From assembly GCA_020632255.1 (NCBI GenBank), contig JACKFX010000003.1, positions 48,119 to 112,118 on the forward strand: a stretch of DNA of 64,000 nt, read 5' to 3'. Below are positions 12,043 to 42,572 of this stretch, one piece after another. The position numbers were made by a program, and so were the translations under genes. This DNA comes from Pseudomonadales bacterium. GTDB taxonomy: Bacteria; Patescibacteriota; Microgenomatia; UBA1400; PJMF01. The notes beneath the pieces are model-generated. The model did no database searches, had not been told where the DNA came from, and saw only the letters and a program-made list of their open reading frames with translations. The stretch's first letter is position 1; the number at the start of each line of letters is the position of its first letter.

Positions 12043-13398
12043 ATGCCCAAATATTCGAAAAAAAAATCAAAAACCCCTTCAATAATTTCTGTTTTTCAAG
12101 CAACTGTGGTAGCCATAGTCGGCATTGGATTAACCGCTTTGCTGTTTTTGATAACTCAAAATCAAGATCTGCGACAACAAGCCTCAACTCAAAACAATAC
12201 CGACATAGTCGTATGTCCCCTCGATTCTTCTCTTACTGATTGCAACTATTTTGGTCCTCTTGGTATCCAACAAGCGTTGTCGGCTGTAGAACCTAACGGG
12301 CAAATTCTCATTAAAGCCGGACAATACGCGCTAGATTCAACTTCACAAACTGTCTTTAGAATTGACTCTAAAAACATTTCTATCAAGGGCGAAGGTCGAT
12401 ATCAAACCACTTTACTTCATTCGTCCAACACCGAGAATGATCCCGGTAGTGTGATTTTTGACATTGGTGGAAATTCTCATGTTGCTATTTCGGATCTTGG
12501 AATTGTACAAAAGGGAAGCTCCTTAGATCAAAGAGTCTTTGCGGTTAAAGCATTTGCATACGGTAGAGATCAACAAAATATTACTGTCGAAAGTTGCTAT
12601 TTCGAGGGTGGACTTGGCTTTATTCCGATCAGCATTGGTTCGTATGATCATAGTCTTACCAACAGTCTTGTGGTCGGTAACATCATGATCGCTCATTATG
12701 GAGGAATAAAAGTCTATAGTGGCAGTACTTCAGACACAAAGGCCGAAATAAAAAATAATATTCTCTTTGGTTCTATTGATCCAGAAAGAAGAATCGTTTC
12801 AATTATTTCCTCCGATCCCATTGATGGCGTGTCTGGAGTTCTAACTGCAGTTGTTCAAAATAATGCTGCTGGTGGTAATGGAGCTAATGCTTTTGATTGT
12901 TATAATGCCTCTGGAAACGAACACTCTCTTAAGTGCGAATTAACCAACAATATAGCTTTTCAAAACAGTCGCCTTGGGTTTTCAAGTAACACTGTAGTAA
13001 ATTTCGCATTGTTTGAATATAACCTAGGATTTGAAAATCGCGCTGGAAATTGGCCATCGGGTTGGCCAGGATTTCCACCCACAACTAATATCTCTGCGGA
13101 CGCCCTTTTTCAGACATCAAATACAACCAAAAGAGTAAAGGCAGAAGATTATATGCTACTCCCTAACTCTCCAGCTCGTAATGGGGGAAATCCACAAATT
13201 TTTGATCCAGATGGCTCCAGATCAGACATAGGACCTTTGGGCGGACCAAATGCTTGCAAATTATTGGCAACCTTGCCAGGTTGCACATTGCCCTCGACTC
13301 CAGAGTCTAAAACTGATCCTAAGGAAAATAAAGAAGCAGGCTCGCAAATACTGCGTCAGCAAAAAGAGGTGGATGTTCCCATCCGTGTGTCTAAGTAG
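12043..13398 (+). CDS. membrane-anchored right-handed parallel beta-helix repeat protein (pectate-lyase/NosD-like fold)
   Basis: N-terminal TM helix SIISVFQATVVAIVGIGLTALLFLI. This is followed by G/N/S/I-rich repeats typical of beta-helix proteins (NISIKGEG.., IGGNSHVAISDLGI.., GNIMIAHYGGIKV..). Confidence 0.5.
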   Translation: MPKYSKKKSKTPSIISVFQATVVAIVGIGLTALLFLITQNQDLRQQASTQNNTDIVVCPLDSSLTDCNYFGPLGIQQALSAVEPNGQILIKAGQYALDSTSQTVFRIDSKNISIKGEGRYQTTLLHSSNTENDPGSVIFDIGGNSHVAISDLGIVQKGSSLDQRVFAVKAFAYGRDQQNITVESCYFEGGLGFIPISIGSYDHSLTNSLVVGNIMIAHYGGIKVYSGSTSDTKAEIKNNILFGSIDPERRIVSIISSDPIDGVSGVLTAVVQNNAAGGNGANAFDCYNASGNEHSLKCELTNNIAFQNSRLGFSSNTVVNFALFEYNLGFENRAGNWPSGWPGFPPTTNISADALFQTSNTTKRVKAEDYMLLPNSPARNGGNPQIFDPDGSRSDIGPLGGPNACKLLATLPGCTLPSTPESKTDPKENKEAGSQILRQQKEVDVPIRVSK

Positions 13399-13433
13399 TC
13401 AGAATCAATCTACAATCCTTTTGGTCGAAAAAT

Positions 13434-14219
13434 TTAGGCATCAAACCAGGCTACGCACACTGCATTCGCATTGTGGAACGGTTGATCATACTTTGCTTTT
13501 GAAACATCCTTGTAACGAACCTGCCTCCATGCATTTAGATGCGTGGTTCTTTGTAGAAAATATGTTCGTGTAAATCCAAAAAAACCAGATTTCAACAATA
13601 CATCCAAATTAGGATTATATCCCAGTGGAAACGTCACTAATAATCTACCTCCAGGATTGAGTAAACCTTTTAGAGTATGTAGTGCTTTTAAAGTTTTACA
13701 TCGATCTGGCGCGTCTTCATCATAACCAACATGTTCGAGTGTGGAAATTCCACAGATGTAGTCGAACTTAGTTCTTGGACTGTACTCAATTACATCTTCA
13801 TTAATAACATGGCCTGCTTTTTCATATTTGTCTAACACAGTGTAATTTAGAAATCCACACTTCTTCGCACCTTCTTGGAGGTTACTTAGCGGAAAGTAGT
13901 GAGACAACACATCGCCCACCTCAAGCACAGAAAATGAAAACTCTTTGCTCTCAATAGTATCTCTCCAAGGCTTTGAAGCCGTCTGCAAAAGTTTTTTTCT
14001 AAGTTGTATATGTAAAAATCTCCATGCGATAGGAACTTCTACTGCTCGCTCATTCTTCCAGGTAGCGTTATAGCGATGACAGAAATATGAATACTTCTTA
14101 CCTAAAAATACAAACCTTTTATAACGAAAGGTTTTTCGAGCAAACTCAAAACTGTGAATGAGTCGTAGAAATGGTGATTGAATATCAAATGGGAGTAAAA
14201 ACATTACATGAATTATCAC
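13434..14219 (-). CDS. class I SAM-dependent methyltransferase-like protein
   Basis: LEVGDVLSHYF.. and ..ISTLEHVGYDEDAPDRCKTLKALHTLKGLLNPGGRLLVTFP resemble MTase motif I/II and post-II regions. Confidence 0.45.
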   Translation of the reverse strand: MIIHVMFLLPFDIQSPFLRLIHSFEFARKTFRYKRFVFLGKKYSYFCHRYNATWKNERAVEVPIAWRFLHIQLRKKLLQTASKPWRDTIESKEFSFSVLEVGDVLSHYFPLSNLQEGAKKCGFLNYTVLDKYEKAGHVINEDVIEYSPRTKFDYICGISTLEHVGYDEDAPDRCKTLKALHTLKGLLNPGGRLLVTFPLGYNPNLDVLLKSGFFGFTRTYFLQRTTHLNAWRQVRYKDVSKAKYDQPFHNANAVCVAWFDA

Positions 14220-14370
14220 CTACGTCTAATCAGGAGTAAACTAGCACATTATAATTTTGCTCGAGCGAGACACTTGCTAGTTTCAGGTAAATGAACTCAA
14301 TCAATGCTGGAAGGGAACACCTTACTTGAAATGGACCCTTCACTAGATGACTGCAATTGGACAAGGTGTA

Positions 14371-17300
14371 TTACAATCCGTTTAAAAATCCAAATACTTC
14401 ACGCAAATTGGTTATGACAAGATCAAATGCATTATCCGTTGCTTTTGGGGTAATCGTAACGGTATCGATAGATCTCGACTCATTGTTAGCGCTATCTCTT
14501 GAAATTGCTCGTAAATGATATACCTTAGAAGGGGTTAAGCCCGAAACAATAACTAGATGATTGTAGGTGAGTGTTCGATCTTCTTGAGTGGTTTGAGAAT
14601 AACTCACTCCCGTGCCATCACCAAATTCAACCTGCGAAGTCGCTGGCTCATCTGTTGTCCATGTCACAACAAGTTGCGAATTAGACTCTTGGGCGGTTGT
14701 ATTTACCTGAGGAACATTAGTTCCCTCAACAGTTAGATCGGTAATTCTTGGTGGTCGTGTATCTGTGGCCGTAGTAAATCGTAAGTTGTCAGATACTGCC
14801 TCATTACCAATTCTGTCTCTTCCTTTTACAATTAAAATGTACGATGTTTCGGGCAGTAAGCCAGGCACTATCATTTCATGTTCTCCATCAAGCAGTTCTA
14901 TATCGACTGCATCTCGAGCATATTCCGGGTTTGACTCAGGGTAGAAGGTAATAATTGATGAAATCGGCGTGTTCGATTCCCATGTCACTCGTATTGACGA
15001 CTGAGCTGTGTTGGCAACTTGCTGTACTCTCACATTACTCACTTCAGGTCGTGGTAGGGTTTCAAAATCGAGGATTGTGCCAGCATATGTGTCTGCTTCA
15101 GAATCTTCTGTGTCAATTTTAAAGTAATATTTTGTGCCATCATCCAAATCCGAGAGTTGAATCGCGTACGTCGTTTCTAAAGAAGACGTTGCAATTGTTT
15201 CAATGCCACCAAATGAGGTTGACTTGCCGTAACTAATGTTGGCTGCAGATGCACCAACTGTAGTAAATTCAATCAAAGCCGAATCTATGCCAATGTTTTT
15301 AACTACAACATCTTTCACCAACGGTGCAGGATTTGTCTGGAAGCTTTTTTCTTCTGACTCTCCAGTGTTACCATCCTCGTCGGTCCATTTTGTTTTATAG
15401 TAGTATGTCTTTCCGGGTTCTAAATTAATGAGATTAATTGTGTGTTCAGAAACTTGAGTAGAATTTGAAGTTTCTTCATCCTCGTAATTGCCTGAGCTCG
15501 TTCCAATAGAAACTTTACTATCACTAGTTCTAGCGGTAGTCCACGTAATGGTTGCACGTTTGGTTGTAATTGATGAAGCTGCGGGTCCAGAGGTCAGCTC
15601 TGCTGGCTCAGTGTATGCGCCTTTGGGAATAAGTGAGACCGCATTACTGTATGAGGGACTTGCGATCGATTCGTCAGATGAGTCAGTCGCGGCAACGCGC
15701 CAATAGTACAAGCTGGACGTACTGAGAGTGTCTAAAAAGGCCAAGCCGCTTGTGCTATCTATGTCTGTCCATGAATTGGCATCATTCGATCTTTGAATGG
15801 TATACGTAAGATCTCCTGTGCCTCTATAATCTGGGCTAGACCAAGCTAATGATGCTCTCCACAACGAGGCAGTCTTGACCGATGCGTCTGAAACAACGAG
15901 TGATTGGGGGGCATCCGGTAACGACGAATCTAGAGTGAAGTTTCCATAAATATAATTACTCTGTGAATAATTTTGGTTGTCATCAACTGCCACTACATAT
16001 ATCGTATTTGAACCCTTCCGCACATTAGACAATGACGTTGTAGAAATACTTGTTTGGGTTGTGGGCACATATGTTGCCGAATTTGAAGTAATAGTTTGAT
16101 ACAAGGCTGGTGGAGCAGTATTAATCATATAGTAGTAGTTTGTAATGGTTCTGCCATCTGATGGGGTCGCATCGGGCCAATTAAATGAATACATATTTTC
16201 CGTATTGGTGGAAGGTGTTATTGTGACCACAGCCGAGCTGTCGAAAGCCGGTGCTTCTCCTCCATATTCTAGGGGGGCAGTTGTAAACGCGGAAGCATTA
16301 CCCGCCCTATCAACGGTTCTAAAATAGAGTACATTACTCCCAACAATAATGTCGTCTCCAACCACGCTTGCATTCAGTGAAAAGGGCTGAGCCGAATCTG
16401 TGGCAATATACTCATATCCAGTGGTGACGTCGGTTATAATTCCTCTCCACGTGTCTGTTGAATTAACAGCGTATTGATAGCCCAAAATACCCGAACCTGC
16501 ATCGCTTGCTGCTTGCGGACCACTGATAGGCCAATAAAAATTCATATCAGCAATACTAGATACACTCCCCGAAGAAGCGGAGATTGTTTTGACATTATTA
16601 GGAGATGTACCATCAAAATAAAATGAAAAAGTACTACTAGCTGTATCATTTTGCCCAGCATTATTCGCAGTATCTATTGGTCGAATTTTGAAGTAATAGG
16701 GTTCACTGCTAGAGGAAAGCCATGTGTTTCCTCTCAACGCCGTATTGGAAAAATCAACCGAGTTATCATCGATAATAAATTGGCAGTTAGATCCTGTGGT
16801 AGAAACTGGAGAGGCCCCCAGTAATCCCTTTTGAGTTGAAGGATCACCGTCAGGATCAGTGCCTAAATACAGGCAGTAGCCCTTGAGTCCAGAAGTATCG
16901 CCATTTGTAATCCAAGAAAAGTAGATATCCGAACGACTAAACCAGACCACAGATGAATCGTCTGTGTGCGTTGTGGGATGGGCCGCATAAGCCTTCATGT
17001 TTGTGGTCACCACATTTGTAGGGGAAGTCGTATCAATTGCAAATGCTGGGTCTCCGGATGCATCAACCCAGGCTGATTCAGCGTCGTTTTCATCAATTGT
17101 TTTTACTCTCCAATAATAGTCACCTTCTGCCAAAGTCTGCCCTGCAGAACCAACTGCATATGTTCCAGATCCAGCGTTCTGACCAACGGTAAATGAAGCA
17201 GATCCCTGCAGCATTAGCGATCCAGTAAAGTCAATGACCACTGAAGAAAAATCGGCAGTATCAGCAACTTGAATTTGATACTTTACCTGATTTTCTGAAT

Positions 17301-19416
17301 CTGGATCTGACTGCGAAAACAAAAAAGTGGGAGTTGTATCATTGCTACGTTGACTATCAATAAAAACTGATGTTCCGGGGATAATAGGATCACTTGGATT
17401 GGCATTGAGTACAACGGAAAAGTCGGTTTCAGACTCAGCGTTCTCTCCATACACAATCCATTGAGAGCAATAATCTGACGAATTACACACCCGTGATTGC
17501 CAATGGTAGTTTGTTAAGTCTTCTAATCCTGACACAGTGACCGAGCCCACGACGGGGGTGTCGACATAACTCGTTTCAGGGCTGGTATGAGTAGCAGTAT
17601 CGGTGAATGCATCGCCCACTACTCTAACTTCGAACTCTGCGTATAGTTGATCGGAAGAATCTGGGTCGCTCATCAAAACCTCAAGAACTATTGAGTCTTC
17701 ATGGACCTGGCCACCAACTTCAATTTCTGAATCTTCAGAATCCAATTGGGTTGATGATCCGGGCTTAGAGGGAAGACCACTTAAGAAGAATGTGCCATCT
17801 TCTCCCACATATAATGGGTTGGAGTGCGTTCCAGCAGCAACCGAAAATGATCCCAAAAATTCATTGATGTGGCTAATAATTGAAACTCTTCCGCCTCCTC
17901 CAGAACCGCCAACTCCGTTTGAATTGCCCCCTTTCGCTGAAATTGATCCCGATCCAGATAACACTCCGTGGGCCAATAACCACAAGCTACCTCCAGCTCC
18001 TGCTCCATTTTCACTCGTATTTTCTCCACCGTCGGCCGCAAGCGTCCCATTAATAGTGAGTTGATCGTAGGCAGTAATTTTAATTGCGCCACCACCCCGA
18101 CCAGTAGTTATTGTAGAACTTTGACCAAAGGCACCGCCGCTACCCAAAGTAATTGGACTTATTTCAGACCCATAAGTTATACCGCCATACACTGTAGAAC
18201 CACTTGATCCCTGAGTGTTTCCTCCTTTGCCCCCGTGACCTCCACCACCTCCAGTATATCGAGTTCGAACTCCTCCAGCTCCTGGTCCTTTTGCAATTTC
18301 ATATCCTAATCCGGTACTGGTAAGAGTACTTCCAGAATCAATGGTTAGAGTATCGACAGTAATATCCCAACCATAGCCGCTTTCATCTACTTGATCTGTG
18401 TTTTTTGAGGCTAGTTGCAAGGTACTATTGTTTGTAACTAGAATACTCGTAATGGTGGGAAATGTATCTCTAAAATACGTGTAAGAATCTGGATACCACT
18501 TTTGTGAGTTTCGAATGTTGAGTGAGTTATCATCGGTATCAAGCACTATGGCGGTACCATTTGTGCCAGAATACAGAGCATTTGAAGTATTCACACCACC
18601 TGTTGCCACCAAAGTCAATGTATCCGAAAATGAAGCCGTTTCTAAGACTATCCTCCCTCCTGCTCCAGCACCAGAACCACCCGTTGCTCCACCTCCCACT
18701 GACGAAATCGTTCCCGATCCACCAACAGCAGCATCCCCAACAATCCAGATACTACCTCCCGAACCAGCACCGCCCCATTGTGTGCCCGCTCCTCCATTTG
18801 TAGAAATCAATCCATCAACTACCACATCTCCTGCAGAAACTATTTTAATCGCTCCTCCTCCTGAACCTCCGGCAGGAGTGCCTTGACCAATGCCGCCTCC
18901 ACTTCCCAAATCTATGGGGGCAATCAAAGAACCATATATAATCCCTCCCAATGATATGTTGCCGTTTCCCCCTGTGCCTCCATATCCACCTCCTGCGCCA
19001 CTATATTGCCCCGTCCTGTTTCCACCAACTCCCGGACCATAAGTAAATGGGTAACCCTGAGCATCTGCCGCTAGTATGCCCCCAGATTCCACAGTGAGCG
19101 CTCCCACTTGCAGTGTCACGCCAAAATCATCGTCGTAATTAGTGTCTCCAGTTTCGTAGCTCTCCAATGTTACCGTAGTCCCTGAAGTAATATGTAATTC
19201 AACACTTGAACAATCAAAAATGCCGGAATTTGCTAATGAAGCAGATATAGATCGATTGGTATTAATCAAAATCGTGCCATTTACAGTAGAATCACCATCA
19301 CCGAATCCACCATCAACATAAGGACACGACACCGCACTTACTTGAGAAACAAAAAAAAGACGCAAGAACGAAATCGCGCTTAGACTCAAGAAAAGTCCTA
19401 CTTTCAGCTTATTCAT
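14371..19416 (-). CDS. giant secreted surface protein (1681 aa): signal peptide, two Gly-rich ~270-aa repeat modules, then Ig/FN3-like beta-rich domains
   Basis: N-terminal MNKLKVGLFLSLSAISFLRLFFVSQVSAVS. There are internally duplicated blocks (..GGGYGGTGGNGNISLGGIIYGS..GGGAIKIVSAGD.. versus ..GGGGGHGGKGGNTQG..GGITYGS..GGGAIKITAYDQ..). The long S/T-rich C-terminal two thirds has repeated YYWRV / YYFK beta-sandwich-like units. Confidence 0.75.
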   Translation of the reverse strand: MNKLKVGLFLSLSAISFLRLFFVSQVSAVSCPYVDGGFGDGDSTVNGTILINTNRSISASLANSGIFDCSSVELHITSGTTVTLESYETGDTNYDDDFGVTLQVGALTVESGGILAADAQGYPFTYGPGVGGNRTGQYSGAGGGYGGTGGNGNISLGGIIYGSLIAPIDLGSGGGIGQGTPAGGSGGGAIKIVSAGDVVVDGLISTNGGAGTQWGGAGSGGSIWIVGDAAVGGSGTISSVGGGATGGSGAGAGGRIVLETASFSDTLTLVATGGVNTSNALYSGTNGTAIVLDTDDNSLNIRNSQKWYPDSYTYFRDTFPTITSILVTNNSTLQLASKNTDQVDESGYGWDITVDTLTIDSGSTLTSTGLGYEIAKGPGAGGVRTRYTGGGGGHGGKGGNTQGSSGSTVYGGITYGSEISPITLGSGGAFGQSSTITTGRGGGAIKITAYDQLTINGTLAADGGENTSENGAGAGGSLWLLAHGVLSGSGSISAKGGNSNGVGGSGGGGRVSIISHINEFLGSFSVAAGTHSNPLYVGEDGTFFLSGLPSKPGSSTQLDSEDSEIEVGGQVHEDSIVLEVLMSDPDSSDQLYAEFEVRVVGDAFTDTATHTSPETSYVDTPVVGSVTVSGLEDLTNYHWQSRVCNSSDYCSQWIVYGENAESETDFSVVLNANPSDPIIPGTSVFIDSQRSNDTTPTFLFSQSDPDSENQVKYQIQVADTADFSSVVIDFTGSLMLQGSASFTVGQNAGSGTYAVGSAGQTLAEGDYYWRVKTIDENDAESAWVDASGDPAFAIDTTSPTNVVTTNMKAYAAHPTTHTDDSSVVWFSRSDIYFSWITNGDTSGLKGYCLYLGTDPDGDPSTQKGLLGASPVSTTGSNCQFIIDDNSVDFSNTALRGNTWLSSSSEPYYFKIRPIDTANNAGQNDTASSTFSFYFDGTSPNNVKTISASSGSVSSIADMNFYWPISGPQAASDAGSGILGYQYAVNSTDTWRGIITDVTTGYEYIATDSAQPFSLNASVVGDDIIVGSNVLYFRTVDRAGNASAFTTAPLEYGGEAPAFDSSAVVTITPSTNTENMYSFNWPDATPSDGRTITNYYYMINTAPPALYQTITSNSATYVPTTQTSISTTSLSNVRKGSNTIYVVAVDDNQNYSQSNYIYGNFTLDSSLPDAPQSLVVSDASVKTASLWRASLAWSSPDYRGTGDLTYTIQRSNDANSWTDIDSTSGLAFLDTLSTSSLYYWRVAATDSSDESIASPSYSNAVSLIPKGAYTEPAELTSGPAASSITTKRATITWTTARTSDSKVSIGTSSGNYEDEETSNSTQVSEHTINLINLEPGKTYYYKTKWTDEDGNTGESEEKSFQTNPAPLVKDVVVKNIGIDSALIEFTTVGASAANISYGKSTSFGGIETIATSSLETTYAIQLSDLDDGTKYYFKIDTEDSEADTYAGTILDFETLPRPEVSNVRVQQVANTAQSSIRVTWESNTPISSIITFYPESNPEYARDAVDIELLDGEHEMIVPGLLPETSYILIVKGRDRIGNEAVSDNLRFTTATDTRPPRITDLTVEGTNVPQVNTTAQESNSQLVVTWTTDEPATSQVEFGDGTGVSYSQTTQEDRTLTYNHLVIVSGLTPSKVYHLRAISRDSANNESRSIDTVTITPKATDNAFDLVITNLREVFGFLNGL

Positions 19417-21355
19417 ATCTCAATGCATTCAATGCAGAAATTTTCGTGGCCCTATATGCCGGATAAACTCCTGTTACTACTCCTACTAAAAATGATAGCA
19501 AAAGAATCGATACAGTAAAAGGCAGGGGGATATTAACAATAGTAATTGGACCGATCCCTTTTACAATCGAAAACAGAGATAAGGCGATCTCTAAGATTTT
19601 TCCTGATACAAATCCTAGCGCTAAACCGATAATACCTCCTAATGAACCCATTAAGATTGATTCAGCAAAAAACAAATCTTTTACCTCAGATGATTTCATA
19701 CCCATGGCCTTGAGAAGCCCTACTTCGCGCGTCCTTTCAATAAGCGAGACGGTCAAAGTATTAAACATACCCAAAGTTGAAATTGATAAAGCTACAAATC
19801 CTAAAACTCCCATGATTACACGCACAGATGAAAATAAACTCTCTATTTGAGCCACAGTATCAACCACCGAAAAAGTATTGAAACCAAGTGCCTCAATTTT
19901 TTGGCGAATAGCAGATAAATCACTCTCGTCGTGGGCAACTATTTTGATCTGTGAAAAATTTTGAACTCCAAGTGAACGGATATCAACAAAAGGTACATAA
20001 AAAAGTGGTGTTTTATTGTCTGGAGTAACACCAATTACTGTATAGGTAATTGGTTCTGATTGAATTTTTTGCTCATTAGAATCAAGTAAAATGCCCGTTA
20101 CAACGAAAGTTACTTCAAATGTTTTGCCTAGAATCTCATTTTCAGGGATTTGAAGCAATTCTAAGAATGCTCTATTTACTACTGCCTCGTTTTCACCTTG
20201 CGCCATTTGTACAATAGTTACGTTTTGGACTTCGGGTAAGTCATCCTGTAATGACACCCAATCTGAGTTTGTAACATCAATGGTATTTCCAAGTACACGA
20301 TTATCAAATTGAGTAATTTCAACAGTAATTTTAGCAATATATCCATCTGCATACACTTGGTTACCCTCATTATCTAGCAATGGCAGATATTCATCATTTT
20401 CTTGTTGCCACAACGGCACTTTCACCTTTAGCCAAAGACCCAACTGCGAACCATCGGGTCGCACACCCAGTTTTCCATTTCCATCATTATCAATATATGA
20501 ATCACCCCAAATCTCAGTACCCTTAATCTCTCCAATTTCATTATTGATATATCCCAAAATTTTGCCATTCTTGCTTGCTTGGTCACGCACTATAAGCCAG
20601 GTATCTGGTCCAACCCTAAAAGTGACGTCGGCTACTTTGTCTCCAAGTTCCGCTACGACTGCTTTTTTTTGTTCGGATTCTAGAGCAGTTTCAGTTGTTT
20701 TGGTTGAACTACTAACCGTTTCGTTATTTTCAAAAATCCTACCAATAACAGGCTTAATTGCAGATTGTTGTAGGTAATCTTTTGTGACTCCGTACACTGC
20801 CATATCAGTTCCAGAATTATTGTAGTTAACTTTTCCCACCACATTAATTACTGGCAAAACCTGATCAACGCCATCAATACCCTGAAAAGTAGCGATTGTT
20901 TCATCATTCAGCTTGATTTTACTACCTGGAGCTGTAGTCACATCAGACTGTTTTAATTCATCAAGCCGTGCGACTCTATTAACAACTAAAGACTGTAGCC
21001 CATAGCCAATTGAGATAAGAAATACGATGACGGAGATGCCGATCATCATTCCTCCTACAGTAATGTATGTTCTCGCTTTTTTCGAGAGCATATTTTGCAT
21101 GGCTAACTCGATTAAATCAAATCTTCTTGGACTTTTAGCTGCTGGTTTGTCAATCTTGGAAATAAGAAATAAAAGTTTTTTTGAAAGCTGTGTAAAAAAA
21201 CTTTTTGCTTTTGGAAACTGTATGCTACTCTTGTTTACTATAAAAAGAGCAAAATAAAGATAGACGAGTGCAAAGAACGAAGCGAACTTCTGTGCCTCAA
21301 TAGCCAGTTTTTTTGAATGGTAAAGTAAGGTAGTAAATAATCGTTTTTGCTTCAC
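19409..21355 (-). CDS. MacB/FtsX-family ABC transporter permease with large extracytoplasmic domain
   Basis: The C-terminal FtsX-type 4-TM region (..LLKAMGMKSSEVKDLFFAESILMGSLGGIIGLALGFV..) follows a ~300-aa periplasmic domain after TM1. The start is uncertain (ORF-track start 21355; the internal MQNMLSKKARTYITVGG at ~21103 is also plausible). It overlaps the giant gene start by 8 bp. Confidence 0.7.
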   Translation of the reverse strand: MKQKRLFTTLLYHSKKLAIEAQKFASFFALVYLYFALFIVNKSSIQFPKAKSFFTQLSKKLLFLISKIDKPAAKSPRRFDLIELAMQNMLSKKARTYITVGGMMIGISVIVFLISIGYGLQSLVVNRVARLDELKQSDVTTAPGSKIKLNDETIATFQGIDGVDQVLPVINVVGKVNYNNSGTDMAVYGVTKDYLQQSAIKPVIGRIFENNETVSSSTKTTETALESEQKKAVVAELGDKVADVTFRVGPDTWLIVRDQASKNGKILGYINNEIGEIKGTEIWGDSYIDNDGNGKLGVRPDGSQLGLWLKVKVPLWQQENDEYLPLLDNEGNQVYADGYIAKITVEITQFDNRVLGNTIDVTNSDWVSLQDDLPEVQNVTIVQMAQGENEAVVNRAFLELLQIPENEILGKTFEVTFVVTGILLDSNEQKIQSEPITYTVIGVTPDNKTPLFYVPFVDIRSLGVQNFSQIKIVAHDESDLSAIRQKIEALGFNTFSVVDTVAQIESLFSSVRVIMGVLGFVALSISTLGMFNTLTVSLIERTREVGLLKAMGMKSSEVKDLFFAESILMGSLGGIIGLALGFVSGKILEIALSLFSIVKGIGPITIVNIPLPFTVSILLLSFLVGVVTGVYPAYRATKISALNALRYE

Positions 21356-21362
21356 ATATCCC

Positions 21363-22079
21363 TCAATTTTCTATATCTTTTTGTGCAGGTTTTGTTTTTC
21401 TTGTATCTTTGGCGAGCATGCCATCAATAACCTTGAGTGAGATATCGGCATACTGTAAATAACTGAGGTCGTGGGTGACCATCAATACAGTTTTTCCGAG
21501 TGTTTTGGAAAGATTCTTTAGCATTTTCATCAGCTCTTGTCCCGAATCAAAGTCTAGATTTCCAGTGGGTTCATCTGCAATAATGATTTCTGGATCAGTT
21601 ATTAAGGCTCGAGCAAGTGAAACTTTTTGTTGTTGTCCGCTTGAAAGCTCAGATGGATGATGATACGCCCAAGCTTGCATCTTAAACATTTCGAGCGTTT
21701 GCATGGCTTTTTTTAATCTATTCTCTGTATCTTCGCCCAAAAGGAGTAGTGGTAAAGAAACGTTAGTAAGTACATTTACTGATTTTACCCAGTGTGATTG
21801 CTGATACACCATCCCGACATGTTCTTTGCGATACTCCGATCTAGCATCCTCAGTTAGATGAGCGTATATATCACGACCCAGCATGGTTACGGTCCCTGCT
21901 GTCGGTTCTTCTAGTCCCAAAATCGTGTGTAGTAGGGTTGACTTTCCAGAGCCTGATGGACCAAAAATAATCGCAAACTGACCCTGAGAAATACTAAAAT
22001 CGATCCCACGTAACACTGGTACTAGTTGCTGTCCAACTAAAAACGACTTTTTGATTCCCTGTACTTGGATGCTTGTCAT
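21363..22079 (-). CDS. ABC transporter ATP-binding protein (MacB/LolD-like)
   Basis: Walker A GPSGSGKSTLL, signature LSSGQQQKVSLARAL, Walker B IIIADEPTGNLD. Confidence 0.85.
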   Translation of the reverse strand: MTSIQVQGIKKSFLVGQQLVPVLRGIDFSISQGQFAIIFGPSGSGKSTLLHTILGLEEPTAGTVTMLGRDIYAHLTEDARSEYRKEHVGMVYQQSHWVKSVNVLTNVSLPLLLLGEDTENRLKKAMQTLEMFKMQAWAYHHPSELSSGQQQKVSLARALITDPEIIIADEPTGNLDFDSGQELMKMLKNLSKTLGKTVLMVTHDLSYLQYADISLKVIDGMLAKDTRKTKPAQKDIEN

Positions 22080-22438
22080 GATGTGTATATCCTACATACT
22101 ACACTAAAATCACTGATTTTAAAAAGAGAAAAGAAATCTACAGCGTTTCTAGCGTACAAGATAGCTTCTAGCGATACAGCATAAACTCTTTTCTACAGTT
22201 AGTTTCCCAGAAAATGGTAATCTTGTCAAAAAAAACACTCGAACAGACTCCTTCCAAATTACTGTAAAAATCTAAAAAAAGAAGTTTACTTCTTTTTGCA
22301 TGCTTCGCTTGCAATGCGCCCGCACAAAAAGAGCTGGTGCGGTTCGTGCTCAGGGCACTATGGCTGGAGGATCGTATCCAGCTATGAGAAGTTCGAAAAA
22401 ATGATCATTAGATTGTTGGCTGGACAGTGACCAATTAG

Positions 22439-22720
22439 ATGAAGGATTATACCTTCAAATTACCTGTAAATACGAGTGTCTCTGATTTGACAGTGGTATT
22501 TACAAATGATTACTATAATCCAGACACCGGTCAAAACCGTACACTCGAGTTTGATTACCTTAAGATTGGCAACAAAGTGTACCTGTCTGAAGTAGTTGCA
22601 ACGTACTCCAATGGAAGTTGTGGAGGGAGGCAATCGTATTTTCGCTGTTATTTTGAAAAAACACTATTGTGCACACATATGCAACCTAGAAGAGAATTTC
22701 CAGCCACTTTTCTTGGTTAG
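22439..22720 (+). CDS. hypothetical small protein (possible domain fragment)
   Basis: 93-aa ORF with no signal peptide. It overlaps the ftsB 3' end convergently by 35 bp. Weak call. Confidence 0.2.
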   Translation: MKDYTFKLPVNTSVSDLTVVFTNDYYNPDTGQNRTLEFDYLKIGNKVYLSEVVATYSNGSCGGRQSYFRCYFEKTLLCTHMQPRREFPATFLG

Positions 22721-23042
22721 AACGGCGATCTTGGGGTGTTATTTCCCTATCACTACTAGGCGTTTCTGGTACTGTAAGCTGAACAACATACTCACCTTCT
22801 TTTTGAAGAAGTAATTGGTCTCTGATAATCTTTTCCTTATATTCTGGGCTTTTTGAGTACTCGAGCTCAGTTTGAAGATCTTGGACTTCTTTTGATAAAT
22901 TGTATGCTTTTTCCTCGAGTTTAGAGATTTCAGAGGTAGATTGTTTAGAGCGTTGTCCTGTCTGGCGAAGTGAGACAATAAGTAAGATAACAATGGCAGA
23001 GATAGCAACAATAGTGATTGGATGTTCTAGGGTTTTTGCCAT
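22686..23042 (-). CDS. septum formation initiator FtsB/DivIC-family protein
   Basis: N-terminal TM helix, then a coiled coil, then ..EKIIRDQLLLQKEGEYVVQ.., which resembles the DivIC/FtsB C-terminal motif (ARe.LgmvkpgE). Confidence 0.5.
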   Translation of the reverse strand: MAKTLEHPITIVAISAIVILLIVSLRQTGQRSKQSTSEISKLEEKAYNLSKEVQDLQTELEYSKSPEYKEKIIRDQLLLQKEGEYVVQLTVPETPSSDREITPQDRRSNQEKWLEILF

Positions 23043-23192
23043 TGCAATAAGTCCAGCCTCATGATATTATAAGATACCTCTGAAACTAGAGAGTATTTTT
23101 ATGCCGATTAAAGAAAGCAAAAATTACTCATACAGAGAATACCTAAGTATAGCAAAGTATAAAAGAAATTAGAAATAAGAGGCACACTGTTT

Positions 23193-24059
23193 ATGCAAAA
23201 GACACTAACTGATGCACATGCGCTTTTTACTCAGCATCTTAAAGATTCTGGGAAGGCTCATGCTACTGTAATCGCATATAGTAAAGATATTGAGCAATTG
23301 GTTGAGTTTGTTGGAAAAAAGGGCAAAGGAACAATTGATGAGGTTTCTGACACTGATATCAACGAGTTCAAGGAATTACTCAAGAAACAACGCTACACTG
23401 GAAAATCTATTTCAAGAAAAATTAACTCAATTAAAGCCTTCTTTAGATTTTGTATTGGTCAAGGAATGATCAATGATAACCCCGCTGAAGTAATTACACA
23501 TCCAAAATATGAATTGACACCTCCTCGAGTATTATCTCGCATTGAGTATCGCGCGCTTCGTGATGCTTGCCGCGGCGACGCTCGTATGTACGCTGTTGTT
23601 GAGCTCTTGCTCCAAACTGGTATGCGTATTTCTGAGTTAGCAGCTCTCCAAATCGGAGATGTTGATTTTGATCGTAAGGTTTTAATCATTAAAGCTCAAA
23701 ATTCTCGAGAAGCACGCAAAGTTCCTTTGAATGAAGCTGCAAAAGAGGCCATCATGGACTATCTCCAAGTTCGCCCTCGTGCACGAGAAAAGACTGTTTT
23801 CCTTACAAAAACATGTCGACCATTCTTAGTTCGCAACATTCGTACTGCTATTGATCGTTATTTCCGCTTAGCTGGTATCAAAGATGCTAAAGTCAATGAC
23901 CTCCGTCACACCTTCATCGTCGAACAGCTCAAGGCTGGAACTCCACTTGTGTATGTTTCACAATTGGTTGGTCACAAGAGAATTACCACTACTGAGAAAT
24001 ACTTGAAGCTTATCGAAGCTCCAGAAATGACTCCTAACGTTCGAATTGAAGAGTTATAA
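23193..24059 (+). CDS. tyrosine site-specific recombinase (XerC/XerD/phage-integrase family)
   Basis: ..LLLQTGMRISELAALQIGDVD.. (catalytic R), ..LRHTFIVEQLKAGTPLVYVSQLVGHKRITTTEKYLKL (H-x-x-R ... Y catalytic residues). Confidence 0.75.
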   Translation: MQKTLTDAHALFTQHLKDSGKAHATVIAYSKDIEQLVEFVGKKGKGTIDEVSDTDINEFKELLKKQRYTGKSISRKINSIKAFFRFCIGQGMINDNPAEVITHPKYELTPPRVLSRIEYRALRDACRGDARMYAVVELLLQTGMRISELAALQIGDVDFDRKVLIIKAQNSREARKVPLNEAAKEAIMDYLQVRPRAREKTVFLTKTCRPFLVRNIRTAIDRYFRLAGIKDAKVNDLRHTFIVEQLKAGTPLVYVSQLVGHKRITTTEKYLKLIEAPEMTPNVRIEEL

Positions 24060-24306: not shown

Positions 24307-27300
24307 ATGAATGAAATTTTAAATTATTTAAATATTGGTGGAGCTCATAAAGAAAAAGAAAAGTCAGAGCTTCATGCCGAAGAAGCAGAGGCTTATGAGC
24401 GCTACAAGAAATTACGATCTCAATTTGGTGTTTCTGAAAATCAACCATATAACGCATTGGTAAAAAAACGAACATTGGATATTAGTTCATATATAAAATT
24501 TCATATACAAGAAACAGCTGCGAGTACACCAGCTGAAACAGACGAAGCATCTTTTGAGGATGAAATTGCAAGTGAAGAAGGATTAATTTCCCATTTACAC
24601 TCAGCTTTAGGAGAAGGATATAAAGCTTCTAGACAAGAACATGTCCAGAAATTGACAGAACTCGGTGTAGCATATGCAGATAAAGTGTTGCGTGTATATG
24701 AAAGAGGCTTAGTTTTTGCTCGAAATGGTGCTTATAAACTTGAATTTGATCAGGAAACAATTGATTCTGAGTTAGCAAAAACTATTTCTTATGATCTCGA
24801 TCAAATGTATGCTTTTTTGGAATCAGAACAATCAATTAACTTTTTAGGTAAGTGTGAAAATTTTCCACTCGCATACGATCGTGCAAGAGAATTGTTTGGG
24901 AAGAATGCTAATAAGCTTGATGCTCAAGACAAAAAAACACCTGCTTTGCTTAATCTTTTGGCTGGTGTACCCCAAGAAACATATCAAAAAAATCTCTCAG
25001 TTATTAAACAATACAGTTTTTTGTACCCTCCAGTTGCTGAAGGTACTTTTATAGAATTTTCTACCCCCTACATTGAGATATTAATGAATGGTATTACGGA
25101 AAGTGAGCAGATGACCTTTAATGCGGTCATGAAGATTGGCAAAATATTGGGTGACAAAAAACTAGTGGGTCACCCAATAGTTTCTAAAGGTCCAAAAGAA
25201 ATACTTGCATCTGAAGAAGATATTCTTAATGAACTTGAAACACTAGAAGTGTTGATATACTCCCTCAAAGACAACCCAGATTTGCTTGCAGCAGTTATGG
25301 AAGATCCGTCAACAGTTTATAGTAACTTAAAATCATTGAGAGGAGTTGCATTTTGGCAGGATTTTGTTGCAATTTTAGTAAAGTTAAGCGCTGATGGGTG
25401 GGGAGTAAATGTTGAGGATGCGTATGATTTGCTGAAAGCCGATAGGTCTGGAAAAAATCGAGTAGATTCTATATGCGGTAATATTCGAAAATCTAATTGG
25501 GCCAACAGCAGACTTTTTGATGCCGAGCAACGAGAGTACTGGCTTTTTTTGCAAGATATACGTTCTCAGGAGCGAGCTGAACAAAACATAATTTCAATTG
25601 ATGAAGTTGCTATGCTGCAATCATTCATACGTCCTGACACGTCAAACCTATTTTTCAACATTACTGAGATTATTATCCGAAATACTGAGGATCCATTTCA
25701 GAGAAAAGATGTATTTAATTTGTTGTGTGAGCAGAAGGATGGCTTAGGATTTGGAATACATGTAGATGAAGTATCTGCGTATCTAGATAGTATCGATGAA
25801 AAAACTGCAGATGAAGTTGATGCCCGTTTTATTAAAGTATGGCAACACTGTCAAAATAAAGGGATTCTTAATGTTGTGTTTTTCCCTGAATTTTTGTTTT
25901 CAGTTATGAACCGAGTTGATGAGCTCTTTGATGCCAATAACGAGCCCCTATACTTATTGTACTTTGAGTTCCTACAGTACGTTAAATCATTACCTTTAGA
26001 CTCAACGAGTCTTTTTAAAACAATACAAGATACTGTTCTCTCGAAAGAGGAACCATTCACTGAGCTTTCCAAGCTTGTAACTGATAATGTTGACACACAA
26101 TTTCTTGAAAATTTACAGTTATATGTTCGCGTCATCGAAATTTTTAAAGAAGAAAACATTAAAGACTGGAAAAATTATCATATCCAGTTTTTTGACTATT
26201 TGTTGCAAGTAGATGACAAGGAGGAAGTCCTTGCAGATATCAAGACAGTTTTAGCTAATTCAGACATTCCAGATTTTGCAAAAATATATCGTGTTTTCGA
26301 ACGTGTCTATTTACAAGAGGGTGTATCTAGCTATGGATCTCGATTTATTACCCAAGCCCCAGATGGTTTATCTGATGTTGTAGTTAGTCCCGAGCTTGAA
26401 AAGGCGAGTCAGAGAAAGAAAGCGTTTTTATTGTATACAGATTTGTTGCGGATTCATGTTGATTCAAATAATGACTCACTGCGGGCGTATCTTCGACTCT
26501 TTTCAGAAGTTCAGCAACTAATTGATACTTTAGAAACTGATGGAGTCGTATCTTTAGGCGAGAAAGATAAACTTCAATTGTTTAGAGTTTTTTCAAAGTA
26601 TGATGGGCTTTTTGGTCAGACAAAATTGCCTCAATTTGAGTTTGATTTGGGTACAATTAATCCTGAAGAAATAGACGATATTCTCATTCTTTCATTACAA
26701 AAATTATATGCACAGTTTGCTGTGCCCGATGGTATGCGTCTAAGTGATAGAGTTACTGAAATATTTGCACGTACTTTAGGGGTTAGTTCAATTGAAGAGC
26801 TATTAAATAGAATGGACACTGTAACAAAAGAATCTGACACAAAAAATCGTGCTCGAGTTGAGCAGGGCAGCTTTTCTTTTGAAACAGGTGATTTGTGCAC
26901 CTCTGTTAATGTTGATGAGTGTGCCGAAATTCTAGAAGATGGATTGACAGCCCCAGAATTTTTAAAGGAAAAAATTGCACGAAATCACTTGCTATTTAGT
27001 TTAGAGCTTCTTTCAATTGGGAATATTGAGGATAGAGACCAAAAGCAAATAAGCGCTGATCTTCAGCAAGAATTGCAACTTGGCAAAAATGATGTTGCGC
27101 TTGTTTTTACTGAAATAAATCAAGTGGTTTCTGATGAATCTGCTACAAAATCAAGAGCTAAGCATGAAGTCTTTGATATTGAACAAGCTGTTGGTATTGG
27201 CTCAGTGTTTGGTCGAAAGGGTGTTAGAACAGGCCTTTCATCCTCTGAATTATCAGCAATCCTTGTCACTCCATCTATGAGAGAGAATGGTCAAAAAATG

Positions 27301-41996: not shown

Positions 41997-42572
41997 GTGA
42001 TGAAGTCTAAAAGAATTCTGTTCTACACTCTTTTCTTGTTAGGATCCATTATCTTAATGGGATATTTTGTGCTTTCAAGATATGGTTCTGCTTCTGTCTT
42101 CCTTTCTTCACGTTTGCCTTTTAGCAAAGAATCAAATTTGGGTGATCCTCCGTTTAGAGAACAAATTGACGCAAAGGGTAATTATCGCATTGAGATCGAT
42201 GCTCAGGTTATTGAAGTAACGAGAGAAGCGCCGTCACCAGATATGCCCGAACAATCATTTTTAGTCTTGCAAAGTAAGGGCGTAAAAAAGCCATTTAAAG
42301 TTGGTTTAGGACCAGATATTCAACATCGCTCTTTTCGGAATGAGAAATTACTGCAAGAAACCACCCAAGAAGGTGTGATTGTTAGTAGTACAATTCCGGT
42401 TACTGAAATAGCTTCTCTGTTGAATCCCGGTGATTCAATACTGATTCAGCTTGGAGTTATTTCGGAACACGCATCTTTTGTTGAGAGTTGGAAAGCATTT
42501 TTTAACTCTAATAATGGGGAGATAACTATTAATTATAATTTCGTAAGATCTATAACTCTGTTGCCATCATGA
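41997..42572 (+). CDS. hypothetical N-terminally membrane-anchored protein
   Basis: TM helix ILFYTLFLLGSIILMGYFVLS. Its stop overlaps the next start by 4 bp (ATGA). Confidence 0.4.
   Translation: MMKSKRILFYTLFLLGSIILMGYFVLSRYGSASVFLSSRLPFSKESNLGDPPFREQIDAKGNYRIEIDAQVIEVTREAPSPDMPEQSFLVLQSKGVKKPFKVGLGPDIQHRSFRNEKLLQETTQEGVIVSSTIPVTEIASLLNPGDSILIQLGVISEHASFVESWKAFFNSNNGEITINYNFVRSITLLPS

Follow-up and report, generated by a model that had tools for sequence, protein, structure and literature searches.

Organization of the locus

The window (the whole stretch of DNA analysed, 64,000 nucleotides) carries three co-directional genes on its minus strand, as the earlier note had them, encoding an ABC ATPase, a MacB_PCD/FtsX permease and a giant surface protein (Table 1). 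That note had described their boundaries as touching or overlapping; this is right for the permease stop and the ATG of the giant gene, which overlap by 8 nt (ATGAATAA), while the ATPase and permease genes lie close together but do not overlap, the sequence reading TGA, a 7-nt spacer (GGGATAT) and then GTG, with a GAGGG Shine-Dalgarno-like motif at the spacer. The upstream non-coding region that it had pointed out is present and is free of ORFs of at least 80 aa; matches there to consensus promoters are weak and not above those in shuffled sequence. A consensus scan of positions 13300-23300 detected no convincing terminator between the three genes, again with matches not above shuffles, and the sole nearby terminator match (19379-19360) falls within the signal-peptide codons of the giant. 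Judging from spacing alone, the three genes appear to be co-transcribed.

Table 1. Features of the three-gene module, in window coordinates
Feature	Position	Strand	Details
Upstream non-coding stretch	22080-22438	minus	359 nt; presumed promoter region of operon
ABC ATPase	21363-22079	minus	238 aa
MacB_PCD/FtsX permease	19409-21355	minus	648 aa, GTG start
Permease N-terminal extension	21080-21355	minus	aa 1-92, hydrophobic helix aa 22-45
Permease insert, beta-rich, family-specific	20183-20659	minus	aa ~233-391 (~160 aa), in extracytoplasmic domain
Giant surface protein	14371-19416	minus	1681 aa, ATG start
Sec-type signal peptide	19333-19416	minus	aa 1-28, read from translation
Variable head	17737-19332	minus	two Gly-rich modules, predicted right-handed beta-helix
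Head module 1	18547-19134	minus	aa 95-290
Head module 2	17782-18339	minus	aa 360-545
Middle region	17050-17736	minus	aa 561-789, one Ig-like domain, Ig_Rha78A_N, aa 694-786 (Pfam)
Conserved stalk	14458-17049	minus	aa ~790-1653, ~890 aa
Near-invariant C-terminal tail	14374-14457	minus	TITPKATDNAFDLVITNLREVFGFLNGL; candidate docking element

The module is flanked in the window by housekeeping genes (TsaD, YidC, GroEL, FtsH, DnaK and PNPase), and a tyrosine recombinase gene lies ~1.1 kb upstream of the operon. A 'Candidatus Woesebacteria' entry matches the permease at 100% identity, supporting the assignment of the organism to the CPR.

The ATPase and permease

The ATPase matches ABC_tran (Pfam, E 3e-34), and its catalytic motifs can be seen intact in the translation: Walker A GPSGSGKST, signature LSSGQ, Walker B with the catalytic Glu IIIADEPT, and H-switch VTHD. 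Its top NCBIfam matches are to LolD, MacB-NBD, FtsE and YbbA, all under the equivalog cut-offs, and by sequence it is assigned to the LolD/MacB/FtsE class; it also scores against the DarD and L_ocin_972 ABC models in NCBIfam. The pair stays below the cut-offs of the FtsEX, MacB and Lol models: FtsE TIGR02673 gives 172 (cut-off 264.85) and FtsX_Gpos 27.7 (cut-off 225); the MacB equivalog NF007826 gives 71.2 bits with the permease and 173.5 bits with the ATPase (cut-off 966); and among the Lol models lolCE TIGR02212 gives 59.3 (cut-off 362) and LolD 201.9 (cut-off 307.75).

The permease contains both MacB_PCD (PF12704; E 9e-18, 65.7 bits, cut-off 27) and FtsX (PF02687; E 9e-17, 61.7 bits, cut-off 25.5). 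It has four transmembrane helices and, between TM1 and TM2, a large extracytoplasmic domain of the MacB type (Porter and Sabre) that takes in aa 131-496 and is carried on helical stalk extensions. This is the fold of the type VII ABC mechanotransducers (YtrF, FtsX, MacB, LolC/E), which according to structural work have no transmembrane substrate path and act via an extracytoplasmic partner protein (PMC12646458). Some of its homologues are named 'ABC-type antimicrobial peptide transport system permease' in the source databases.

The insert in the extracytoplasmic domain is specific to this permease family. It has conserved Trp, Tyr and Gly columns, and a profile made from it matches 156 representative clusters of 1.84 billion, nearly all of them permease-sized and with the insert at the same position; the sole matches outside the permease family are multi-SH3_3 proteins. 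Direct SH3_3 matches to the insert were found in 3 of 15 members (best E 0.029), and its first ~45 residues may be regarded as SH3b-like, though the resemblance is weak and partial; the window's own insert segment has no Pfam match, and the profile has none among PDB sequences. The N-terminal extension is modeled as two long helices, with a mean Kyte-Doolittle hydropathy of about 1.7 (19-residue windows) for the hydrophobic helix. ATPase-permease fusions in the family keep this extension, placed between the NBD and TM1.

The giant surface protein

The giant begins with a hydrophobic signal, MNKLKVGLFLSLSAISFLRLFFVSQVSA/VS, whose core reaches a mean Kyte-Doolittle value of 2.0 over a 15-residue window and which is probably cleaved after VSA. 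Most full-length homologues likewise start with a hydrophobic signal or anchor, and many have long signal-anchor-like N-terminal segments with a conserved RFxFxRFQFNL motif. Most of the signals close with Ala-x-Ala-like sites (VFA/LND, VSA/VS), which suggests ordinary signal-peptidase cleavage. A lipoprotein, with Cys at +3 after the signal, was considered and rejected because the lipobox-like motif is not conserved: the window has SAVSC, the closest relative SAMTC, and most homologues have no Cys.

The two modules of the head contain 31% and 28% Gly and share 43% identity (E 7e-24). Both the signal peptide and the duplicated Gly-rich modules of the earlier note are borne out. Its description of the modules as beta-solenoid-like also agrees with the structural model, in which they form a right-handed beta-helix resembling adhesins of the EtpA/HMW1 type. 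A kinship of the Gly-rich module with AgmC (NCBIfam E 3e-4, 19.8 bits, cut-off 275) was judged to be driven by composition and set aside.

The middle region is common only to a closer subfamily of giants (L001, L002, L004 and L009). The stalk that follows is 50-57% identical to that of all ABC-linked giants, those of the DGR type included, and the C-terminal 419 aa of the protein have 382 database matches at 44-66% identity. Pfam detects no family between about residues 800 and 1270, and four FN3/Pur_ac_phosph_N-like domains at the stalk end (aa ~1270-1660); together with the single Ig-like domain of the middle region, these are the Ig/FN3-like domains detected in the giant. Domain searches revealed no LPXTG, SLH or transmembrane anchor (Pfam/NCBIfam), no LytM, CHAP, NlpC/P60 or amidase match, and no RTX (HemolysinCabind) match in Pfam.

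The protein ends in a tail with the consensus …TITPKATDNALDLVITNLxEAFGFL, the only element outside the stalk that is universally conserved. The motif is found in 192 of 200 family sequences, always 0-9 residues from the C-terminus, with Phe at 100% and the Leu/Ala/Val columns at 96-99%; in the window it occurs once. Its hydrophobic moment is maximal at 100-105 degrees (0.37-0.47, vs 0.09 at 170 degrees), and from this periodicity the tail is predicted to be an amphipathic helix; at a mean Kyte-Doolittle value of 0.6-0.8 it is too polar for a transmembrane segment. A crude and underpowered analysis of covariation between the C-terminus of the giant and the permease (normalised MI with APC, 66 pairs only) gave no signal, at 0.236 for tail columns and 0.222 for stalk columns.

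Conservation of the module

Related loci were reached in two ways, from permease homologues (8 loci) and from the C-terminus of the giant (75 informative loci). A homologous giant adjoins the ABC pair in all 8 of the former; giant, ATPase and permease are directly adjacent in 65 of the latter, with a median gap of 33 nt, and the ABC lies within 10 kb of the giant in 72. The exceptions are three loci without an ABC within 10 kb and seven with it displaced or on the opposite strand. Thus the adjacency is far beyond chance, and the three-gene module is conserved in Microgenomates-type CPR bacteria; the earlier note, which had proposed a dedicated module, named absence of conserved synteny as what would refute it, and synteny is what was found. 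The gene order of relatives differs from the ATPase-permease-giant order of the window and L001, which is a rare one, so the association has survived rearrangement and selection must be maintaining the linkage.

Across 90 loci, giant homologues of 950-3200 aa are present in 87 and the ATPase in 77, and no fourth gene recurs, a MacA-type adaptor included; nor does a MacA/HlyD-family adaptor gene adjoin the operon in the window. Such a gene would have been detectable, since L004 has a separate classical system of membrane-fusion protein, ABC and 406-aa permease. An apparent giant-ATPase fusion in L060 was discarded on account of a stop codon after ...FSFLR.

At least 505 module loci occur in species-representative genomes and 2 in 2.9 million viral contigs (IMG/VR); with so few viral matches, a phage origin was rejected. 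Protein identities among the loci are 42-60%. Some relatives lie in ICE-like contexts, and the DGR-type loci have T4SS-like genes (TrbC, TrbL, VirB4-like, M23 peptidase) beside the module.

Head exchange and diversification

In relatives, the head of the giant is exchanged for different ones, and about 20% of related loci have a giant that is a genuine target of a diversity-generating retroelement (DGR). Upstream of the giant, 16-22 related loci have genes for RT and Avd. In L006 and L007, template and variable repeats differ at template adenines only, and the variable region is internal, at about aa 370-450 of a ~1550-residue giant; in L008 an RT gene likewise lies upstream of the giant, and a search there for template/variable repeats of at least 40 nt was negative. 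CPR DGR targets are typically without recognisable conserved domains (Roux et al. 2021, PMC8144416). The giant of the window is not such a target within the 64 kb: tblastn with the RT, Avd and T4SS proteins of L006-L008 had no match there, and no segment of the giant gene is repeated elsewhere in the window (blastn). The invariant C-terminal helix, the swappable and DGR-targeted head and the rarity of the window's gene order are all absent from the earlier note.

Proposed function

The earlier note took the ABC pair for a MacB-type pump that drives the giant outward. In that form the idea is not supported: a Sec-type signal or anchor stands at the N-terminus of the giant itself and of most homologues, no MacA-type adaptor recurs among the 90 loci, and the permease fold is type VII, a class reported to have no substrate path (PMC12646458). 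Our preferred explanation, which we hold with middling confidence, is that the giant is a modular adhesin-like fibre with a type VII ABC mechanotransducer as its dedicated membrane partner, by which it is anchored or actuated, not pumped across the membrane. The giant would leave the cytoplasm by the Sec route, directed by its N-terminal signal, its conserved beta-sandwich/FN3 stalk of ~890 aa would span the envelope, and its variable N-terminal head would form the distal end that binds a ligand or host, a role supported by the adhesin-like fold, the exchange of heads and the DGR targeting. The head would be a duplicated beta-helix in the window and another fold in relatives, including C-type-lectin-type segments rewritten by the retroelement. 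At the other end, the C-terminal amphipathic helix would dock on the enlarged extracytoplasmic domain of the permease, whose partly SH3b-like insert may touch the wall or the stalk; retention of the giant through its tail is supported by the lack of an LPXTG, SLH or transmembrane anchor together with the invariance of the helix. ATP binding and hydrolysis would then produce conformational changes in the permease that hold, position or actuate the fibre, much as FtsEX works with EnvC/PcsB. We infer here the contact between tail and permease, the orientation of the fibre and the effect of the ATP cycle on it.

Since the head is swappable and sometimes hypermutated, the module may be an undescribed host-attachment device. 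A bolder version, offered tentatively, would make it an unrecognised surface organelle of Microgenomates-type CPR bacteria, a fibre with a swappable head, hypervariable by DGR in some lineages, and a tail plugged into a type VII ABC, in which ATP hydrolysis extends, tensions, retracts or releases the fibre for host attachment. If true, it would add a fifth functional class to the type VII ABC systems and provide the first adhesin base driven by ATP. In the literature available to us, no earlier description of the ABC-giant module was found.

Host recognition and attachment are a central open question for the ultrasmall CPR/Patescibacteria, most of whose large surface proteins are unannotated. 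With at least 505 loci in species-representative genomes, the module is a concrete and widespread candidate for attachment, and its anatomy is clear: a variable or DGR-diversified head, a conserved stalk, an invariant tail and, in the membrane, a dedicated partner driven by ATP. It also adds a new class of partner to the type VII ABC systems, whose partners define their function. Should the ABC merely anchor the fibre, the result is a useful annotation; actuation would amount to a new adhesin principle. The defined parts of the module, being open to mutation or co-folding, make the question testable.

Alternative explanations

A less likely alternative has the ABC acting as an extractor or release machine in the manner of LolCDE/YbbAP, pulling a membrane-held segment of the giant out for hand-over to the wall or S-layer, or for release. 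After Sec export the giant would have to be held in the outer leaflet by its C-terminal helix or by an uncleaved signal anchor; the long signal-anchor-like N-termini with RFxFxRFQFNL in many homologues are suited to this. The synteny fits extraction as well as it fits anchoring, and most other data fit too, but a tail of this polarity would not insert stably into a membrane and so would have little need of ATP-driven extraction; most signals end in Ala-x-Ala-like sites, suggesting ordinary cleavage; the lipobox is not conserved; no downstream acceptor, whether a LolA-like protein or a sortase, recurs; and release of the fibre would leave its retention on the cell unexplained by any other part. 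The earlier note's idea of 'deployment' is nearest to this model.

It is unlikely that the ABC handles a small substrate (lipid, peptide, glycan precursor or toxin) needed or delivered by the giant, which would then be a co-factor and not a mechanical client; examples would be a substrate for modification, or a cargo that reaches a host cell along or through the fibre. Expulsion of small molecules and peptides from the extracytoplasmic side is established for systems of the MacB family (MacAB; the bacteriocin and darobactin exporters), the ATPase also scores against DarD and L_ocin_972, and the T4SS-like neighbours in DGR-type loci hint at host-directed delivery. No biosynthetic, precursor-peptide or immunity gene is recurrent, however, no adaptor protein is present, and the model does not explain why the pairing is strictly one-to-one, nor the invariant tail or the family-specific insert.

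That there is no functional link, an exporter of the antimicrobial-peptide type standing beside a surface-protein gene by chance or both riding on a mobile or phage element, is suggested by the database names of some permease homologues, the tyrosine recombinase upstream and the ICE-like contexts of some relatives, but is most improbable and largely refuted by reciprocal synteny (8/8 and 72/75) that persists despite altered order and flanks, with the housekeeping flanks of the window, the scarcity of viral loci, the separate classical system of L004 and, against near-identical mobile copies, the 42-60% identities also speaking against it.

Relationship to known systems

The closest parallel is FtsEX with its partners EnvC, PcsB, CwlO or RipC, which shares a separate ATPase and a four-TM permease of the FtsX fold, with no adaptor and no outer-membrane duct. 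In our proposal the likeness would extend to a Sec-exported partner that docks on the extracytoplasmic domain of the permease via a helical element, and to ATP driving conformational change in place of transport. The partner here is an adhesin-like giant of 1000-3200 aa on an FN3 stalk, in which neither a hydrolase nor a LytM/CHAP domain is detectable; the permease has an extracytoplasmic domain of the MacB type with its ~160-aa insert, where that of FtsX is small; and docking is proposed to occur through a short helix at the C-terminus in place of a long coiled coil.

Unlike MacAB-TolC, the Gram-positive MacB-like systems YknXYZ and Spr0693-0695, and YtrEF, the module has no membrane-fusion protein of the MacA/YknX type and no exit duct, and it differs from them also in having no evident efflux substrate and an obligatory pairing with the giant. 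LolCDE-LolA and YbbAP-TesA are type VII extractors, passing a moiety embedded in the membrane to the periplasmic partner that is bound to them. They share with the module the fold and the combination of an ABC with a defining partner, and both may capture a hydrophobic or amphipathic segment where it meets the membrane surface; the module differs in having a single, homodimeric permease gene and no conserved lipobox, lipoprotein substrate, chaperone or hydrolase partner.

The giant adhesins of type I secretion (LapA-LapBCE, SiiE-SiiCDF, MpIBP) likewise have a dedicated ABC encoded next to a giant adhesin of repeated beta-sandwiches whose binding region is distal, and a C-terminal signal-like element is essential to their logic as well. 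Those adhesins have RTX repeats and are secreted unfolded, without a Sec signal, by an HlyB-type exporter (type IV fold) with a membrane-fusion protein and an outer-membrane protein. In the module the ABC is of the MacB/FtsX type and the giant has an N-terminal Sec signal and no detected RTX; the other T1SS components are absent from the organism, and no membrane-fusion protein recurs among the 90 loci. The resemblance of the modeled head to the beta-helix adhesins EtpA, HMW1, FHA, UpaB and IcsA is one of fold only: the module, from a CPR bacterium of the monoderm type, has neither a TPS domain with a TpsB partner nor an autotransporter barrel.

Finally, with about 20% of the related giants being DGR targets, the family joins Mtd of the Bordetella phage, TvpA of Treponema and the CPR targets of such elements, at least one class of which is thereby given a conserved structural and genomic context. 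Here the variable region is internal and not C-terminal, and the target protein continues into a conserved stalk and tail and is coupled to an ABC.

Gene arrangement and surroundings

The giant and its ABC pair, an ABC ATPase and a permease, lie together in the window (see the table), and the Pfam matches bear out the ATPase and FtsX-type permease identities proposed in the earlier note. Its description of the gene borders as touching or overlapping holds for permease and giant, where the permease stop and the giant ATG have 8 nt in common (ATGAATAA), but the ATPase and permease do not overlap: read from the sequence, a spacer of 7 nt (GGGATAT, within a GAGGG Shine-Dalgarno-like motif) separates the ATPase TGA from the permease GTG, so that the two nearly touch. 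No ORF in the 359 nt upstream of the ATPase (22080-22438) reaches 80 aa. In a consensus scan, promoter-like and terminator-like sites were no commoner than in shuffled sequence, and none lay between the three genes.

Since a partial 'Candidatus Woesebacteria' entry matches the permease at 100% identity and the flanks carry genes for TsaD, Sua5/TsaE, YidC, GroEL, FtsH, DnaK, HrcA and PNPase, the window is, on sequence grounds, chromosomal DNA of a CPR bacterium. Adjoining both the upstream non-coding region and a tyrosine recombinase gene is a 93-aa ORF that matches only the C-terminal part of CBM60 (E 3e-9, profile positions 35-88 of 91) and looks like a truncated remnant. Another small ORF, of 261 aa with weak methyltransferase matches, follows the giant on the same strand at a distance of 151 nt; in the other loci no such gene is kept beside the module. 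Three large ORFs may encode further surface proteins of the same genome.

Features of the window and of related loci (L numbers; positions are in the window unless a locus is named)
Feature	Position	Strand	Description
ABC ATPase	21363-22079	minus	ORF, 238 aa; Pfam ABC_tran
Permease	19409-21355	minus	ORF, 648 aa, GTG start; Pfam MacB_PCD and FtsX
Permease N-terminal hydrophobic helix	21220-21292	minus	permease aa 22-45
Giant	14371-19416	minus	ORF, 1681 aa; Pfam one Ig-like and several FN3/Pur_ac_phosph_N-like domains
Head of giant			giant residues 29-560; two Gly-rich modules
CBM60-like ORF	22439-22720	plus	93 aa
Tyrosine recombinase	23193-24059	plus	Phage_integrase/XerC-D-like
Methyltransferase-like ORF	13434-14219	minus	261 aa
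Large ORF	24307-28104	plus	1265 aa; no Pfam or NCBIfam match
Large ORF	42569-46504	plus	1311 aa; CBM_4_9 the only domain
Large ORF	12043-13398	plus	451 aa; weak parallel beta-helix match
Complete DGR cassettes	L006:2215-9231, L007:2675-9255		Avd, template repeat, RT; directly upstream of giant
T4SS-like cluster	L006:12205-18767, L007:12103-18660
Kinase and receiver genes	L031:11277-14186		between giant and ABC genes

Conservation of the linkage

The linkage was followed both from the permease, using homologues 45-77% identical over their full length, and from the giant's C-terminus. In every locus reached via the permease (L001-L009, from seven different proteins) a homologous giant adjoins the ABC pair; the order in L001 is that of the window, and in all the others it is giant, ATPase, permease, with ATPase and permease fused into one 944-aa protein in L008. 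The C-terminal 419 aa of the giant, searched against one genome per species, matched at least 505 loci. Synteny was read in the best 80 of these, 75 of them informative: the ATPase starts a median of 33 nt past the giant stop and is followed by the permease in 65, the ABC genes are displaced or on the opposite strand in 7, and no ABC lies within 10 kb of the giant in the remaining 3. The earlier note had named absence of conserved synteny as grounds for abandoning its operon; from both starting points, synteny is conserved.

When all ORFs of 90 loci were clustered, only three families proved recurrent, the giant (87), the permease (77) and the ATPase (77), the next commonest being RT (22) and Avd (21); no recurrent membrane-fusion adaptor, sortase, peptidase or chaperone was found among these clusters. 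Record titles name Woese-, Roizman-, Shapiro-, Davies-, Collier- and Pacebacteria, Dojkabacteria/WS6 and WWE3, and small-genome MAGs of this kind also bear many automated labels ('uncultured Gammaproteobacteria' etc.). Among 2.9 million viral contigs, just 2 encode the giant. Some genomes have two module copies (L022/L053, L058/L089, L014/L030, L049/L075); the first pair lies ~18 kb apart on Shapirobacteria contig JBAYIT010000002.1, one copy being DGR-linked and the other having no RT or Avd within ~10 kb upstream.

The ABC ATPase and permease

All catalytic motifs are present in the translated ATPase, whose best NCBIfam scores are to LolD, MacB-NBD, FtsE and YbbA, under every equivalog cut-off. 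The permease model (pLDDT 78) has a ~90-residue N-terminal extension, TM1 (93-128), a 365-residue extracytoplasmic domain and three more TM helices. The hydrophobic helix in the extension, absent from MacB, FtsX and LolC, is kept between the ATPase domain and TM1 where the two proteins are naturally fused (database proteins P0014, P0010 and P0060, residues ~300-320); it may be interfacial or re-entrant, as one more membrane crossing at this point would not fit the topology.

Within the extracytoplasmic domain is a beta-rich insert (aa ~233-391) in which several Trp, Tyr and Gly positions are conserved. Searched against 1.84 billion proteins, its profile matched only 156 representative clusters, nearly all of them permease-sized with the insert in the same place; outside the family it matched only multi-SH3_3 proteins, repeatedly via profile positions ~4-48, and 3 of 15 members gave weak SH3_3 matches. 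From these narrow profile matches and the SH3_3 matches, the insert is judged family-specific with an SH3b-like start. The profile was matched in two or three separate stretches of P0361, P0364, P0366, P0369, P0373, P0382 and P0386 (830-870 aa), the first two confirmed as MacB_PCD plus FtsX permeases, which suggests a duplicated insert.

Architecture of the giant

Full-length giants were studied from the loci, the protein database appearing to list only proteins under ~1000 aa. Residues 1-28 of the window giant look like a Sec signal (MNKLKVGLFLSLSAISFLRLFFVSQVSA/VS), and most of 68 full-length homologues (950-3200 aa) have a hydrophobic N-terminal signal or anchor, often with an RFxFxRFQFNL motif before and an Ala-x-Ala-like site after it. 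A conserved pattern, (Y/F)FxPRFHFSRFQFNL before the hydrophobic segment and (I/V)FA(L/A)ND(T/S)xxxW(T/E)F after, is seen in L016, L021, L027, L029, L034-L036, L044, L049, L053, L056, L063, L064, L066, L071 and others; the window giant does not have the former motif. This region may be a lineage-specific extended signal peptide, akin in idea to YSIRK or ESPR.

The two head modules (31% and 28% Gly) share 43% identity (E 7e-24). The head's sequence relatives come from Planctomycetota, Bdellovibrio, Lentisphaerae and CPR and have no Pfam family. Modules of this Gly-rich beta-helix type (consensus GPGxG…GGGYGGxGG…LGSGGG…GGGAIxL…GGGSGGSIWI…GGGGGGRIA; P0241-P0360) make up a widespread family for which Pfam has no model; they usually stand two or three in tandem and common in Planctomycetota/Phycisphaerae and predatory Bdellovibrio. 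Conservation with all ABC-linked giants (50-57% identity) runs from ~residue 790 to the C-terminus. The head is not common to them: relatives have other beta-helices, propeller-like Cys-rich repeats with LamG-like segments (L031) or DGR-targeted segments.

The most conserved part is the tail, the last 28 residues (TITPKATDNAFDLVITNLREVFGFLNGL). Its motif, found once in the window, is present in 192 of 200 family sequences, each time 0-9 residues from the C-terminus, with one Phe invariant and Leu, Ala and Val columns 96-99% conserved. The hydrophobic moment is maximal at 100-105 degrees, a helical periodicity, and mean hydropathy (KD 0.6-0.8) is below transmembrane-segment level.

DGR targeting in relatives

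Avd and RT precede the giant in L006 and L007, and a 116-120-nt repeat connects the Avd-RT spacer with the giant gene. Because every mismatch in both alignments is an adenine in the upstream copy, these repeats carry, at sequence level, the DGR signature. The variable region falls at ~aa 370-450 of these ~1550-1620-aa giants, which places it within the head rather than C-terminally. In 16-22 loci RT and Avd lie upstream of the giant; complete cassettes were also seen in L012, L016, L018, L021, L023, L027, L029, L034, L035, L037, L040, L049, L050, L053, L063 and L071. Neither RT nor Avd nor a template repeat occurs in the 64-kb window. CPR DGR targets typically have no recognisable conserved or transmembrane domain (Roux et al. 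2021, PMC8144416); the module loci supply a defined architecture and a partner for one class of them.

A T4SS-like cluster (TrbC, TrbL/VirB6-like, VirB4-like ATPase, M23 peptidase and unknown genes) comes after the module in many DGR-type loci, with VirB4-like matches also in L016, L027, L034, L040, L050 and L071, and with Replic_Relax and DUF2958 genes upstream. This neighbourhood could represent either an ICE-like element or an apparatus for contact with the host.

Relation to known systems and possible mechanism

In permease fold, domain make-up and ATPase motifs the module agrees with the type VII ABC superfamily, the giant being its candidate partner; it lacks the features tested for MacAB-TolC, FtsEX, LolCDE and T1SS adhesin systems. 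A literature search, incomplete enough that an earlier description is possible, found no account from CPR in which an ABC of MacB/FtsX type is paired with a giant FN3 protein or a DGR target. We regard the giant as a new class of partner for type VII ABC systems. According to structural work, such systems have no substrate path across the membrane; ATP-driven conformational changes are relayed outside, function being set by the partner, EnvC, LolA, MacA, TesA or BceS (PMC12646458).

The most likely reading, held with moderate confidence, is that the giant's predicted C-terminal helix docks on the permease extracytoplasmic domain, because the giant carries a Sec signal of its own, adaptor and duct are lacking, pairing is one-to-one, no other anchor is recognisable and the predicted amphipathic helix is invariant. 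On this reading a fibre with its variable head presumably facing outward would have the ABC as its base in the membrane, and ATP hydrolysis would position or actuate the fibre, as in FtsEX. The main rival, a LolCDE/YbbAP-like extraction or release step, is nearer the 'deployment' idea of the earlier note and seems possible though rather unlikely. It is quite improbable that the ABC handles a small-molecule substrate, and that its adjacency to the giant is coincidence is scarcely credible.

Genes for a PAS-containing sensor histidine kinase and receiver-domain proteins lie between giant and ABC genes in L031, and L042, L043 and L055 have giant-ABC gaps of similar size (~3 kb). The kinase ORF belongs to a family seen in 6 loci. 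By analogy with BceAB-BceS, kinase genes inside the module hint at a regulatory or signalling link.
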